Shown: positions 39,641 to 52,276, counted from the first letter of the stretch. The stretch is DNA of 63,669 bases from Phycisphaerae bacterium (GCA_046541875.1 JBKHCL010000005.1:1-63669); one strand, 5' to 3'. Numbers and translations are program-made. Notes: a model not told the origin generated them from the letters alone.

Positions 39641-39656
39641 TGGCACAGTCGATGCA
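39641..39656 (+). promoter_or_regulatory. sigma54 (-24/-12) promoter of the nif operon
   Basis: TGGCACAGTCGATGCA: GG-N10-GC, about 100 nt upstream of nifH. Confidence 0.8.
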
Positions 39657-39755
39657 AGGAACCCCCTGACGAATGCGGTCCCGGCCGACGTGATGGAACC
39701 GGGATCCACACAACAGCAGACCGCCCGCGGCGGCCCCCAGCAAAGGAGCAGGGAC

Positions 39756-40580
39756 ATGCGAAAGGTAGCGATTTACGGAAAAGGTGGCATCGGAAAGAGC
39801 ACGACCACCCAGAACACAGTGGCCGCCCTGGCAGAGATGGGCAAGAAGGTCATGGTCGTCGGGTGCGACCCGAAGGCCGACTCGACCCGACTGCTGCTGG
39901 GCGGTCTCAATCAGCAGACCGTACTGGACACCCTCCGCGAGGAAGGCGAGGACGTCGAGCTGATGGACATCCGCAAGGCCGGCTATGGCGATTCGATGTG
40001 CGTCGAGAGCGGCGGTCCCGAGCCCGGGGTCGGCTGCGCCGGCAGGGGGATTATCACCAGCATCAACATGCTCGAGCAGCTCGGCGCGTACGACGAGGGG
40101 GAAGAGTTGGACTACGTCTTCTACGACGTACTGGGCGACGTGGTCTGCGGCGGATTCGCCATGCCCATCCGCGAGGGCAAGGCCCAGGAGATCTATATCG
40201 TCTGCTCGGGCGAGATGATGGCGATGTACGCCGCCAACAACATCTGCAAGGGCATCATGAAGTTCGCCCAGGCCGGCGGCGTCCGCCTTGGCGGGCTGAT
40301 CTGCAACTCCCGGAACGTGGACAACGAGAATGACATGATCGACGAGTTCGCCAAGCGGCTGGGCTCGCAGATGGTCCACTTCGTGCCCCGCGACAACGAC
40401 GTCCAGCGGGCCGAGATCCAGCGAAAGACCGTCATCGACTGGAAGCCCGACGCTCCCCAGGCCAACGAGTATCGCGCGCTGGCCAAAAGCATCGACAGCA
40501 ACGAGCTGTTCGTCGTGCCCAGACCCCTGCCCATTGAAGAACTCGAAAGCCTCCTCCTGGAGTTCGGCGTGCTCGGCTGA
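39756..40580 (+). CDS. nifH: Nitrogenase iron protein
   Basis: [55 protein letters not shown]. Confidence 0.99.
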
Positions 40581-40618
40581 TCGCACTCCGCAACCACGCA
40601 GCAAGAAAGGACTCACCC

Positions 40619-48848: not shown

Positions 48849-50350
48849 GTCGGATCGCAGCCATCCCGCTGGTGCTGATGCTGTGTGTCGCGCCCGGCTG
48901 CGACGACAGCAACGCCGGCAACGCCGGCGACGCCGGGCCGATCACCCTGTTCGCCGCAGCCTCCACGACCGGCGCGATCACGGACATCGCCCGCGCGTGG
49001 GAGAAACACACCGGCCTGTCGGTGCGTGTCAACACCGCTGCCTCGTCCACGCTGGCCAGGCAGATCCAGGCCGGCGCTCAGGCCGATGTCTACCTATCCG
49101 CCAACCCCAGGTGGATGGACGTCCTGCAGCAGGACCGGCGGATCCAGGCGGACACCCGTCGCGACATCCTCACCAACAGGCTTGCTGTCATCGCCCCGGT
49201 GAGCGGGACGCATCCGACGATCGACCTGTCCGCCCACGCGCCACCCGCCGTGGCCGGTCGATGGGCCATCGGCGACCCGACGCACGTTCCGGCGGGGATG
49301 TATGCCGGAAAGTCGCTCGGATCGCTGGGCTGGTGGGACGCCCTGAAAGACCGCCTCGCACCGGCGGCGTCGGTGCGGGCGGCGCTGCGATTCGTGGAAC
49401 AGGAACAATGCCCCATCGGCATCGTGTATTCCTCGGACGCAGCCACCTCCTCGAAAGTGCGTCGCTTAACGTTGCTGCCCGAGGACAGCCACTCGCCCAT
49501 CCGCTACCCGGCCGCCCTGTGCAAAGGAGCACACCCCAAAGCCGAGGCGCTGCTGGCGTTCCTCTCCAGCCCTGCCGCCCGGGAAATATGGCAACGGCAT
49601 GGGTTCTCGCCGATCAACGCCCCGCCCAGCGCCGCATCGGGCAATGTCGACCAGGCCGACCGGTCGGCCGCGATGGCGGCAGCCCTCTTGAGCGTGAAAG
49701 TCGCCCTGGGATGCGTGGCCATCGTGGCGGTCCCGGGCATCGCCGCCGGCTGGCTTCTCGCGCGTAAGCAATTCCCCGGCAAGGCGTTGCTGGATGCACT
49801 GGTTCACGCCCCGCTGGTCATGCCCCCCGTGGTGACGGGGTATCTGCTGCTGATGGTCTTCGGTGCCGGGGGACCCGTGGGTCGGTGGATGGACAACGCA
49901 CTGGGGATCTCGCCGGCCTTCACGTGGATGGCGGCGGTGCTGGCCTCGGCGGTGGTGAGCTTTCCCCTGCTGGTGCGATCGGTGCGGGTGGCGGTGGAGC
50001 TGGTGGACCATCGCCTGGAACAGGCCGGCGCGACGCTGGGCGCCTCGCCCTGGGTGGTCCTCCGGCGGGTCACGCTGCCGTTGGCGCTGCCCGGTGTGTT
50101 GGCTGGTCTGGTGCTGGCGTTCGCCCGGAGCATGGGCGAGTTCGGGGCGACGGCCACCTTCGCCGGCAACATCCCAGGCCAGACGCGAACGCTCCCGCTG
50201 GCCATCTTCACCGCCACCCAAGCACCCGGGGGCGACGAGGTCGCCATGACGCTGGCGGGCGTCTCTGTGCTGATTTCCGTACTCGCGCTGGTGGCCTCCG
50301 AGCTCGTCACGCGCCGCCTCCGCGCCCGGCTGGAGACCGCCCGTGCTTGA
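48845..50350 (+). CDS. modA: Fused molybdate-binding protein and permease (ModA-ModB)
   Basis: Lipobox-like APGC, FAAAST, ASSTLARQI, VPAGMY, VYSSD, IRYP, then in frame LSVKVA, PLVMPPVVTG, AFARSMGEFGAT, TLPLAI. Confidence 0.9.
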   Translation: MSRIAAIPLVLMLCVAPGCDDSNAGNAGDAGPITLFAAASTTGAITDIARAWEKHTGLSVRVNTAASSTLARQIQAGAQADVYLSANPRWMDVLQQDRRIQADTRRDILTNRLAVIAPVSGTHPTIDLSAHAPPAVAGRWAIGDPTHVPAGMYAGKSLGSLGWWDALKDRLAPAASVRAALRFVEQEQCPIGIVYSSDAATSSKVRRLTLLPEDSHSPIRYPAALCKGAHPKAEALLAFLSSPAAREIWQRHGFSPINAPPSAASGNVDQADRSAAMAAALLSVKVALGCVAIVAVPGIAAGWLLARKQFPGKALLDALVHAPLVMPPVVTGYLLLMVFGAGGPVGRWMDNALGISPAFTWMAAVLASAVVSFPLLVRSVRVAVELVDHRLEQAGATLGASPWVVLRRVTLPLALPGVLAGLVLAFARSMGEFGATATFAGNIPGQTRTLPLAIFTATQAPGGDEVAMTLAGVSVLISVLALVASELVTRRLRARLETARA

Positions 50351-51575
50351 GATCCACGCGCACATCCCCCGCGGCGAGCGGTTCGCCCTGTCGGTCAACG
50401 CCGAGATCGCTCAGCCCCTGGCGGGCATCTTCGGGCCATCGGGTGCGGGCAAGAGCACGCTGCTGGAAGCGATCGCCGGGCTCACCGCGCCGGCCGACGG
50501 CAGAATCGTGCTGAACGGACAGGTGCTGTTCGACGCGAACCGGCGCATCTGCCTGCCTCCCCATAAGCGCCGCCTTGGCGTGGTCTTCCAGGACGCCCGG
50601 CTGCTGCCGCACCTCAGCGCCCGCGACAACCTCGATTTCGGCCGACGCCTGCTGCCCAGGCGTGAGCGACGCTTCGACGTCGAGACCGTCGCCGACTGGC
50701 TGGACATCGGCCATCTTCTCAACCGACGCCCAGCCACACTCTCCGGCGGCGAGGCCCAGCGGGTCGCGCTGGGACGGGCGATTCTCACCAATCCGCGACT
50801 CCTGCTGCTGGACGAGCCCTTCACCGGGCAGGACGTCGCCCGTCGCCGTCGCATCCTGGGGCAACTGCGGGCCGTCCACGAACGAACCGGCATCCCCATG
50901 CTGCTGGTGAGTCACGACCTTCCGGACGTGCTCTGCCTGACCGATTGGCTGGTGCTGCTTAACGAAGGTCGACTCGTCGTCCAGGGGCGATACCTGGACC
51001 TGGTGTGCTCGTCGCGTCACGCGGGACTGTTGGCCGAGAGCGGGTTGGTCAACGTGCTTCCGCTGCGGGTGGTCCGCCACTGCCGCGGTGCCGGACAGAC
51101 GCTGCTGAGCTGGACCAAGGCCGCCCCGTTGCCCGATCGATCGGACGCCCGCCGGCGCCGGCGGTGGGTTCGCGGGCCGATGGACACGACACTCGCCCCG
51201 GGCGCTCGCGTGCAGGCCGCCCTCCGCAGCCGAGACATTGCCCTTGCGATGGCCCCGGCGGAATTCATCTCGATGCAGAACCAGTTTCCCGGTGTGATTG
51301 AGTCGGTCGGGCGCGTCGGATCGCGAACCGTCTGCGTGGTTGACGTGGGGGTGCGTCTGCTGGTAGAGATCACCCCACAGACCCGCATGGAGCTGGGGCT
51401 CGCGCCGGGGCGTCGGATCTGGTGTCTGTTCAAGACGCGGGCGCTGGAGCTGGGCAGCCCGTCGGCCGAGCCGGACCGCTGCACCGATGACGATCCGCCC
51501 GGCCAGGTCACCTCCGGCGATTCGTGGCAGCCCGGCGGCTGCACCTTTCCGCCAAGCCGATGGAGCCGATCGTGA
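50343..51575 (+). CDS. modC: Molybdate ABC ATPase with TOBE domains
   Basis: FGPSGAGKS, VFQDARL, LSGGE, LLDEP, ISMQN, LGLAPG..FK. Confidence 0.92.
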   Translation: MLEIHAHIPRGERFALSVNAEIAQPLAGIFGPSGAGKSTLLEAIAGLTAPADGRIVLNGQVLFDANRRICLPPHKRRLGVVFQDARLLPHLSARDNLDFGRRLLPRRERRFDVETVADWLDIGHLLNRRPATLSGGEAQRVALGRAILTNPRLLLLDEPFTGQDVARRRRILGQLRAVHERTGIPMLLVSHDLPDVLCLTDWLVLLNEGRLVVQGRYLDLVCSSRHAGLLAESGLVNVLPLRVVRHCRGAGQTLLSWTKAAPLPDRSDARRRRRWVRGPMDTTLAPGARVQAALRSRDIALAMAPAEFISMQNQFPGVIESVGRVGSRTVCVVDVGVRLLVEITPQTRMELGLAPGRRIWCLFKTRALELGSPSAEPDRCTDDDPPGQVTSGDSWQPGGCTFPPSRWSRS

Positions 51576-52276
51576 ACATTCTCTGCCTCACGCACGTGCC
51601 GTTCGAGGGCCCGGCCAATATCGCCGCCTGGGCCCGCGCCCGGGGACACGCGCTGCAGACGGTCCCCCTGTACGACAGCGCCGCCTCGCCCAACATCGAC
51701 GAGGCCGATTGGCTGGTCATCATGGGCGGGCCGATGAACGTCTACGAACACGACCGGCACCCTTGGCTGGCGGCGGAGAAGGACTGCCTGCGACGGGCGA
51801 TCGACGCGGGCAAGACGCTCGTGGGGGTCTGCCTGGGCGCCCAGTTGCTGGCCGACATCCTCGGCGGGCCGGTCACGCCCAACGCCCACAGCGAGATCGG
51901 CTGGTTCCCCGTCACGCGAACCGCCGGCGACGAAGAAACCGCCGTCTTCGAGAACCTGCCCGAGACCTTCGAGGCGTTCCACTGGCACGGGGATCGATTC
52001 GCCATTCCGCCCGGGGCGATCCATCTGGCAAGCAGCGAAGCATGCGACAACCAGGCGTTCCTCTGGGAAGATCGCGTCCTGGGGCTGCAGTGTCACCTGG
52101 ACTACACCGCCGAGAGCATCGTCGACATGCTCACCCACTGCGGCGACGGACTCACACCGGGGACGTTCGTGCAGACCCCCGCACAGATCGCACCGAGGCC
52201 CGAGCAGGTCTCCGCCACCCGCGGTCGGCTGTTCACCGTGCTGGACAATCTCGCCGCGATGAGATACCGGGCCTAG
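51572..52276 (+). CDS. Class I glutamine amidotransferase-like protein
   Basis: HVPFEGP, IMGGPM, GVCLGAQ, EIGW, WHGD, LQCHLD; GTGA overlap with the modC stop. Confidence 0.88.
   Translation: MNILCLTHVPFEGPANIAAWARARGHALQTVPLYDSAASPNIDEADWLVIMGGPMNVYEHDRHPWLAAEKDCLRRAIDAGKTLVGVCLGAQLLADILGGPVTPNAHSEIGWFPVTRTAGDEETAVFENLPETFEAFHWHGDRFAIPPGAIHLASSEACDNQAFLWEDRVLGLQCHLDYTAESIVDMLTHCGDGLTPGTFVQTPAQIAPRPEQVSATRGRLFTVLDNLAAMRYRA

Follow-up and report, generated by a model that had tools for sequence, protein, structure and literature searches.

Nitrogenase (nif) genes of Planctomycetota have been in print since 2018, as the available text of the relevant publications indicates: they were described in the Tara Oceans metagenome-assembled genomes (MAGs) HBD-08/09 (PMC6792437) and, in 2025, in the nitrogen-fixing pure culture Crateriforma sp. 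HD03, the activity of which was shown, in Novipirellula and in the uncultivated clade Phycisphaeraceae_UBA7800 (PMC12628686), and marine Planctomycetota MAGs were placed in nifH cluster 3 (PMC10719068). The main texts of PMC6792437 and PMC12628686 mention neither nifV nor nifI, "nifA" having 0 occurrences in the first and "homocitrate" 0 in the second. Obligate anaerobes have compact clusters of the order nifH-I1-I2-D-K-E-N-(X)-B, which constitute group G3 of PMC11773926, a source in whose available text Planctomycetota have 0 occurrences. Free-living diazotrophs are described, in the accessible part of the literature, as encoding the homocitrate synthase NifV, while rhizobia without NifV get homocitrate from the plant (PMC8073898, PMC6934396). 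The locus presented here lies in 63,669 nucleotides of DNA from a Phycisphaerae bacterium (GCA_046541875.1 JBKHCL010000005.1:1-63669; the window, positions being counted from its first letter), which is the entire contig C140 of the MAG G000 (3.46 Mb, 214 contigs, 95.4% complete, 3.8% contaminated). Its twelve nif cluster genes probably form, as far as can be predicted from their sequence, a working group II (nifH cluster III) Mo-nitrogenase operon of an uncultured Phycisphaerae bacterium, without a homocitrate synthase gene. Planctomycetota nif genes, those of Phycisphaeraceae included, are already published; new here are the loss of nifV and the apparent replacement of the cluster within a genus.

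This locus shares with the published Planctomycetota diazotrophs, in the available text on them, the phylum of the host and a complete nifHDKENB set in one operon, and differs from them in its source, since the DNA of its population is present in runs labelled microbial mat metagenome. With the G3 clusters (PMC11773926, available text) it has in common the core order, in which the two P-II genes separate nifH from nifD; it departs from them by its extension with a ferredoxin gene (fdx), the molybdate uptake genes modAB and modC and a class-I glutamine amidotransferase (GATase) gene. Gene identities were determined from NCBIfam scores against curated cut-offs, plus Pfam domains (Table 1). The preliminary description of this DNA had announced all six nifHDKENB genes as complete and intact, nifI1 and nifI2 between nifH and nifD, and the ferredoxin, molybdate and GATase genes downstream with short gaps or overlaps. 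Indeed, the six genes are open and each matched its family model on the + strand, two PF00543 matches separate nifH from nifD, an order shared by all 75 related group II loci that include nifH, and the downstream genes follow on the same strand as stated. The gene calls held in coordinates and identities, with two corrections: modA and modB form one frame, and nifH starts at 39756. Two scores weigh against these assignments, namely that of NifD for TIGR01282 (646.3 bits, 7 bits short of the 653.55 cut-off) and that of NifN for TIGR01285 (299.6 bits, 27 below the cut-off of 326.8), although the nifN and fused nifEN models are still the top families of the latter.

Judged by its alignments and motifs, the enzyme is a group II, anaerobe-type Mo-nitrogenase. 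NifD aligned end to end with NifD of Clostridium pasteurianum (4WES/1MIO; residues 8-530, E 1e-186), including residues 385-440, whereas the alignment of alpha chains of the Azotobacter vinelandii type ended at residue 384; NifK aligned end to end with the 458-aa 1MIO_B (residues 3-457, E 1e-187), whereas A. vinelandii beta chains aligned to it only from their residue 57-58. NifD carries an insertion of ~50 residues and NifK is devoid of the long N-terminal extension. The group names follow Raymond et al. 2004, and the ligand residues are counted as in the reference enzymes. Alignments and a motif scan recovered in NifD the cysteines of GCCYAGCKG, HGPIGC and TCPVGLIGDD, as well as CHRS and LHSYDY, in NifK the motifs CQPVGA, HGSQGCC, TTCLSETIGDD and TPSYVGSH, and in NifB the radical SAM motif CNIQCRFC (CxxxCxxC). 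The group II insertion of NifD and the conserved ligands of the P-cluster and of the iron-molybdenum cofactor (FeMo-co), both claimed beforehand, were thus borne out by the alignments to 4WES_A and 1MIO_B. The likeness to the C. pasteurianum MoFe protein (4WES, 1MIO) extends to the NifD insertion, to the short N-terminus of NifK and to every cluster ligand motif; by contrast with the C. pasteurianum system, the present one has a planctomycete host, a sigma54-type element in front, nifI1I2 and a downstream molybdate importer, and is without nifV.

The absence of nifV sets this cluster apart. The order nifH-I1-I2-D-K-E-N-B-fdx is conserved over the class, of which 301 genomes were sampled, and all 12 nif-bearing relatives other than G000 and its sister genome G001 carry a nifV-like gene of 377-411 codons after fdx, directly or within ~1.3 kb. 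Six of these genes were tested with hidden Markov models, and nifV homocitrate synthase was the best family for all six (383-462 bits, just below the cut-off of 462.9); the other six were recognized by tblastn, at 42-47% identity to the protein of G016, a genome in the same genus as G000. No nifV-like gene was found in the window or in L002, the corresponding locus of the second, separately assembled MAG G001. The preliminary description had noted that the window lacked nifA and nifV, in accordance with the scanned open reading frames (ORFs) of the window, which include no enhancer-binding or HMGL-like protein; NifU and NifS were also missing from these ORFs, the rest of the genome not having been searched for nifU and nifS. 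The homocitrate synthase search that it had suggested, extended to the whole of G000 and G001, found no nifV, only three paralogues at 27-34% identity to the G016 protein: a citramalate synthase (C131), LeuA and an unassigned HMGL-like protein (C53). The window and L002 are thus the exceptions among the nif clusters encountered in the class, all others having nifV. This absence would be a derived loss, because G279, which by NifD is closest to the species pair, has the order fdx-nifV-GATase.

It is possible, though doubtful in our opinion, that nifV is not truly missing, the gene being located in the few percent of the genome that were not assembled, or homocitrate being made by a paralogue such as the C53 HMGL-like protein or the C131 citramalate synthase. 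The completeness of 95.4%, in 214 contigs, indeed leaves room for nifV on unassembled DNA, which weighs against a loss, and the C53 protein (440 aa) has weak best matches to LEU1_arch (133 bits) and nifV (127 bits). However, nifV is absent from two MAGs that were assembled separately, and in both of them, as well as in contigs from two other sequencing runs (X3 and X8), fdx abuts modAB at the site where relatives have nifV. The C53, C131 and C19 paralogues, moreover, also occur in G016, which has its true nifV-like gene in addition, and are therefore not replacements peculiar to the nifV-less lineage. The C53 gene adjoins sugar dehydrogenases and a formyltransferase, a neighbourhood that is uninformative for nif. 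Since no homocitrate synthase gene was found, the homocitrate of FeMo-co may come from neighbours or from an unrecognised enzyme, or may be replaced by another acid. A tentative proposal is that of a mat-dwelling anaerobic planctomycete which keeps a fully selected nitrogenase after deletion of its homocitrate synthase gene, and which would fix nitrogen solely with homocitrate obtained from cells nearby, or else with a cofactor containing a different organic acid. According to the available text on nifV-less rhizobia such as Mesorhizobium loti (PMC6934396, PMC8073898), these resemble the present organism by a complete nitrogenase set without homocitrate synthase; they are nodule symbionts with a known supplier, whereas here a host is not known and external supply is one of three possibilities. 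No description of a nifV-less planctomycete cluster was found in the literature as accessible, supplements excluded.

Loss of nifV could also mean that the cluster is a decaying relic, no longer capable of useful N2 fixation, with genes on their way out or kept for a secondary reaction, for instance the reduction of protons. In favour of this explanation are the absence of nifV from G000 and G001, its presence in all 12 of the other class genomes with nif, and the behaviour of Klebsiella nifV mutants, whose cofactor contains citrate and reduces N2 poorly. We nevertheless regard it as improbable: all twelve genes are open in two diverged populations and the molybdate importer is retained. Furthermore, the ratio of non-synonymous to synonymous change (pN/pS) against L002 was 0.00-0.18 for nifH through fdx (0.06 for nifH), as low as that of three flanking housekeeping genes (0.11-0.17), with a pS of 0.04-0.14 between the two nifV-less populations. 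Such low pN/pS since these populations diverged suggests that the nitrogenase is still under selection.

As regards its distribution, NifD was found in 13 of the 301 class genomes and, G000 being set aside, in 6 of 24 families, namely in 2/42 genomes of its own family and in 1/44, 1/12, 2/4, 5/23 and 1/1 of the others. These figures, together with the publications since 2018, do not sustain the rarity of nif in Planctomycetota that was implied at first. The NifD tree positioned the window and L002 inside a clade of class genomes plus the Sedimentisphaerales MAG L003 (92/90), with L009 next (90/87), and this membership gives no sign of recent import from another phylum. A check of NifD phylogeny had been called for; it places the window among class genomes, and indicates that descent within the class is not vertical, on account of G016. 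The flanks of the window match G016 at 85% (to 38531) and 87.5% (from 52327), but its nif genes at only 66-76%. The G016 nif genes are situated on another contig (C37), where they are flanked by sequence that has no match in the window. No end overlap was found between C37 and the contigs matching the flanks (C162 and C22), and the partner of G016 NifD in the tree belongs to a different family (99/98). A NifD tree constrained to unite the genus was worse by 27.7 log-likelihood units (approximately unbiased, AU, test p = 0.029), for a group that was named after the first tree. This tree test is suggestive of non-sister nif clusters in two congeners. As the flanks match G016 well and the nif genes poorly, the segment from ~38531 to ~52327 (13.8 kb) behaves as a replaceable island. 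Among the relatives, ~280 nt without P-II matches separate nifH from nifD in G253 (L121), a 4-6 kb insert lies between nifK and nifE in G278 (L116) and L003, and G279 (L126) has no modABC, its contig ending in nifN and the cluster continuing on C12.

The variability of this segment between congeners, with G016 contigs that break at both borders, would also be expected of foreign DNA wrongly binned with, or misjoined to, a planctomycete contig. The evidence makes this extremely unlikely. The cluster is flanked in the same contig by 38 kb of backbone on one side and 11 kb on the other, its G+C content (0.63-0.70) is like that of the flanks (0.60-0.68), and NifD groups with class genomes. L002 is collinear with positions 31395-53410, across both cluster ends, at 93-95% nucleotide identity. 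Runs X3, X8, X17 and X18 are represented here by contigs only (Logan contigs). Those of X3, from a sample other than the likely source, span 46156-49095 and 49151-53985, and those of X8, from another study and a population ~95% identical, span 45443-50401 and 50739-52575. The downstream (GATase-ZnuA) and fdx-modAB junctions are thus bridged independently, while the upstream junction is supported by L002 and by three X3 pieces that tile 36500-39922 with short gaps. The chimeric contig feared in the preliminary description was therefore not encountered.

The host was assigned to Planctomycetota beforehand from the flanking genes. Planctomycete-style genes are indeed present there, among them those of sulfatases, of a PEP-CTERM protein and of a DUF1559 protein whose N-terminus has a methylation motif, and the genome can be placed indirectly in the class Phycisphaerae. 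G009, of the same class as G000, has a NifD identical to that of L005, a MAG titled Phycisphaeraceae, and G278, also of the same class, pairs in the NifD tree with the Sedimentisphaerales-titled MAG. The Dxs protein of the window is 98% identical to that of L002's genome, 51% and 50% to those of two Phycisphaerae-titled MAGs, 44% to that of a "Planctomycetaceae" MAG and 42% to that of a Lentisphaerae MAG. The title of L002, Planctomycetaceae and not Phycisphaerae, speaks against this placement and was taken as a loose label. The stretch 18438-20412 contains the gene of the DUF1559 protein and, after it, that of a protein weakly similar to the flagellin N-terminal domain.

Transcription from a sigma54 promoter upstream of nifH had been proposed as well. 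The element TGGCACAGTCGATGCA and rpoN (G000:C54:10961-12397, TIGR02395 387.3 bits, cut-off 277.35) were both recovered. The element is the sole such site in the window, but its sequence taken alone is not significant, the expectation being 1.55 sites per window and one or more being present in 80 of 100 shuffles; genome-wide, 45 sites with at most one mismatch occur in 3.46 Mb, both strands considered. What makes TGGCACAGTCGATGCA credible is where it lies and how well it is conserved: in L002 it recurs, with one spacer change, at an unchanged distance of 115 nt, and L009 has CGGCACGTCTGTTGCA at 115. Among the related loci, 69 include 150 nt or more of DNA upstream of nifH, and 58 of these have a sigma54-like element no farther than 400 nt from the gene, versus a mean of 0.96/69 in mononucleotide shuffles. 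Class relatives with upstream DNA have it in 8 of 11 cases, 76-127 nt from nifH. Sigma54 dependence of the nif operon thus appears likely from these sequence comparisons.

That transcription depends on a different sigma factor and starts at some other point of the 1.28-kb upstream region, the motif being a chance match or a remnant, seems rather unlikely to us, although several observations point that way. Besides the number of motifs expected by chance, the mismatch, an A for the first T of TTGC, affects the -12 element (GG and GC are ten bases apart), no sigma54-like element was found upstream of nifH in G150, G278 and G253, and opposite-strand motifs occur in 18 of the 69 upstream regions, far over the shuffle expectation; these may be divergent sigma54 promoters. 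The searches yielded no nif-specific activator, and no TGT-N10-ACA activator site was found near nifH (3 in the window vs 6.5 expected). On the other side, apart from the conserved position, a scan of 38400-53800 for sigma70-like promoters found 0 vs 1.5 expected, and the genome encodes, in addition to rpoN, 11 strong enhancer-binding proteins, two of them with GAF domains; the preliminary description had advised searching the genome for both.

The combination of sigma54 and NifI, presented as notable in the preliminary description, proved to be ordinary: with the nifH-nifI1-nifI2 order constant and the element frequent as reported above, their co-occurrence is the rule in the related group II nif clade. 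In the available text of two sources, nifI1I2 are treated as the regulator of anaerobes and nifA as mainly that of aerobes (PMC11773926; bioRxiv 10.1101/2025.05.20.655134), and this co-occurrence may be under-stated in print.

Concerning the activator, the C210 protein (538 aa; GAF, AAA+ and HTH_8 domains) passes the NifA model TIGR01817 (558.9 vs 528.85 bits). It was rejected as a nif-specific NifA, because this model passes in 83 of the 301 class genomes, far more than have NifD; at E <= 1e-130 it matches in 195/301. When C210 was used as a query in 45 family genomes, 44 had a match at E <= 1e-60, the best ones mostly 65-77% identical, and most of this C210-bearing family is without nif. A second GAF-type paralogue accompanies nif in relatives: it is located 618 nt upstream of nifH in G016, on the nif contig of G279 and beside the cluster in G150 and G253. 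Its counterpart in G000 (515 aa) is on C87, and we give it an even chance of being the nif activator. Against this candidate, C210-type proteins form a clade (86/81) outside which C87 and all nif-linked proteins fall in an unresolved comb, and the C87 regulator is followed by gcvT, an uninformative neighbourhood. The nucleotide identity between the C87 regulator and its matches in G016 does not exceed 73%. At G000:C87 3044-3059 (+), 243 nt upstream of this regulator, lies TGGCACAGCCGTTGCT, which fits the sigma54 consensus exactly and is 1 of 7 exact sites in the genome; it could point to a sigma54 cascade.

The non-coding region upstream of nifH, which is unusually long, is shared with a divergent minus-strand gene. 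An RNA element or a small gene in 38477-39755 was considered and rejected: no Rfam match was found, no frame had a synonymous excess over non-synonymous changes against L002, and inverted and direct repeats were short and unremarkable. Conservation with L002 is uneven, with 36 changes in 38600-38749 and 5-9 per 150 nt, without indels, in 38900-39349; an RNA-library contig of X17 covers 38931-39327. Beyond this region, 37175-38476 (-) contains two ORFs of 227 and 206 codons that are rich in G+C at third positions and match no Pfam family; the second has 20 synonymous vs 14 non-synonymous changes against L002. The RNA libraries X17 and X18 include contigs of 94-98% identity on nif genes, but the flanks and the intergenic region are covered to a similar depth, and these contigs are not taken as a sign of transcription; the peaks in depth over nifH could stem from other organisms.

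From a functional standpoint, the operon would be read as a single 12.6-kb transcript, probably from the sigma54 promoter ~100 nt upstream of nifH to the GATase gene. A GAF-domain enhancer-binding protein encoded elsewhere, the best candidate being that on C87, would open this promoter under nitrogen limitation. NifH, NifDK, NifEN and NifB, the identity of which is established by the family models, would then build and run the enzyme, the ferredoxin would probably feed or serve it, and ModAB-ModC would import molybdate. In Methanococcus, NifI1 and NifI2 switch NifDK off. By analogy, and given their family and position, NifI1 and NifI2 may do the same here when fixed nitrogen returns.

Several features of the individual genes are worth recording. 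Intergenic spacing in the cluster ranges from an 8-nt overlap to 89 nt, and a purine-rich ribosome-binding stretch precedes most genes, such as AAAGGAG before the ATG of nifI2, whose protein has 117 residues across 102 PF00543 profile positions. Alternative GTG starts exist for nifB (47211) and GATase (51524). The position of fdx after nifB is kept among class relatives, and the start codon of modAB overlaps the fdx stop. The ModA part of the fused protein is a periplasmic binding protein with the lipoprotein-like signal MSRIAAIPLVLMLCVAPGC, and the ModB part is a permease; modAB is likewise a single ORF in L002. Among relatives, the modAB match is in one piece in G087, G150, G016 and G069, and in two in G101, G206, G302 and G253. 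GATase homologues also close the clusters of G101, G206, G094 and G279; we know of no role for a class-I glutamine amidotransferase in nitrogen fixation.

Table 1. Features of the nif locus in the window, with the family models, scores and cut-offs on which the assignments are based.
Feature	Position	Strand	Evidence and remarks
Non-coding region, 1.28 kb, shared with divergent minus-strand gene	38477..39755	.	Upstream of nifH
Sigma54-type -24/-12 element TGGCACAGTCGATGCA (putative)	39641..39656	+	One mismatch to TGGCAC-N5-TTGCW; first base 115 nt from nifH ATG
nif cluster, 12 genes	39756-52276	+	nifH-nifI1-nifI2-nifD-nifK-nifE-nifN-nifB-fdx-modAB-modC-GATase
nifH, nitrogenase Fe protein, 274 aa	39756..40580	+	TIGR01287 449.4 bits (cut-off 394.35); P-loop and both cluster cysteines
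nifI1, P-II family, 108 aa	40619..40945	+	PF00543 80.9 bits; between nifH and nifD
nifI2, P-II family with longer loop, 134 aa	40969..41373	+	PF00543 78.9 bits
nifD, MoFe alpha chain, group II, 542 aa	41376..43004	+	TIGR01862 550.2 bits (cut-off 486.05)
nifK, MoFe beta chain, short group II form, 460 aa	43023..44405	+	TIGR01286 429.9 bits (cut-off 427.3)
nifE, 449 aa	44495..45844	+	TIGR01283 626.2 bits (cut-off 505.1)
nifN, 457 aa	45841..47214	+	Start overlaps nifE stop; PF00148 380 bits
nifB, radical SAM and C-terminal NifX-like domain	47253..48506	+	TIGR01290 357.1 bits (cut-off 343.65); PF04055, PF02579
fdx, thioredoxin-like [2Fe-2S] ferredoxin, 100 aa	48546..48848	+	PF01257; NF041612 99.6 bits (below cut-off 150)
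Fused modA-modB, molybdate-binding protein and permease	48845..50350	+	ModA and ModB models on one ORF
modC, molybdate ABC transporter ATPase with TOBE domain	50343..51575	+	TIGR02142 288.2 bits (cut-off 285.05)
GATase, class-I glutamine amidotransferase, last cluster gene	51560..52276	+	PF00117; PRK07053 184.4 bits (below cut-off 250)

When nifH sequences of cluster III are recovered from mats and sediments, sulfate reducers and clostridia are usually regarded as their source. The present locus adds to these a well-supported source in Phycisphaerae, with a layout that is conserved over the class and with NifD spread over 7 of 24 families if that of G000 itself is counted. The non-sister clusters of two congeners are indicative of nif exchange within this class, and call for caution when diazotrophy is inferred from taxonomy. 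The loss of nifV, in a cluster whose other genes are under purifying selection, offers a natural case for the study of homocitrate supply outside plant symbiosis. If homocitrate does come from neighbouring cells, this would be a free-living counterpart of the homocitrate dependency between legumes and rhizobia; in that case, as in that of a cofactor built on another organic acid, the fixation of nitrogen by this lineage would be a community-dependent trait.

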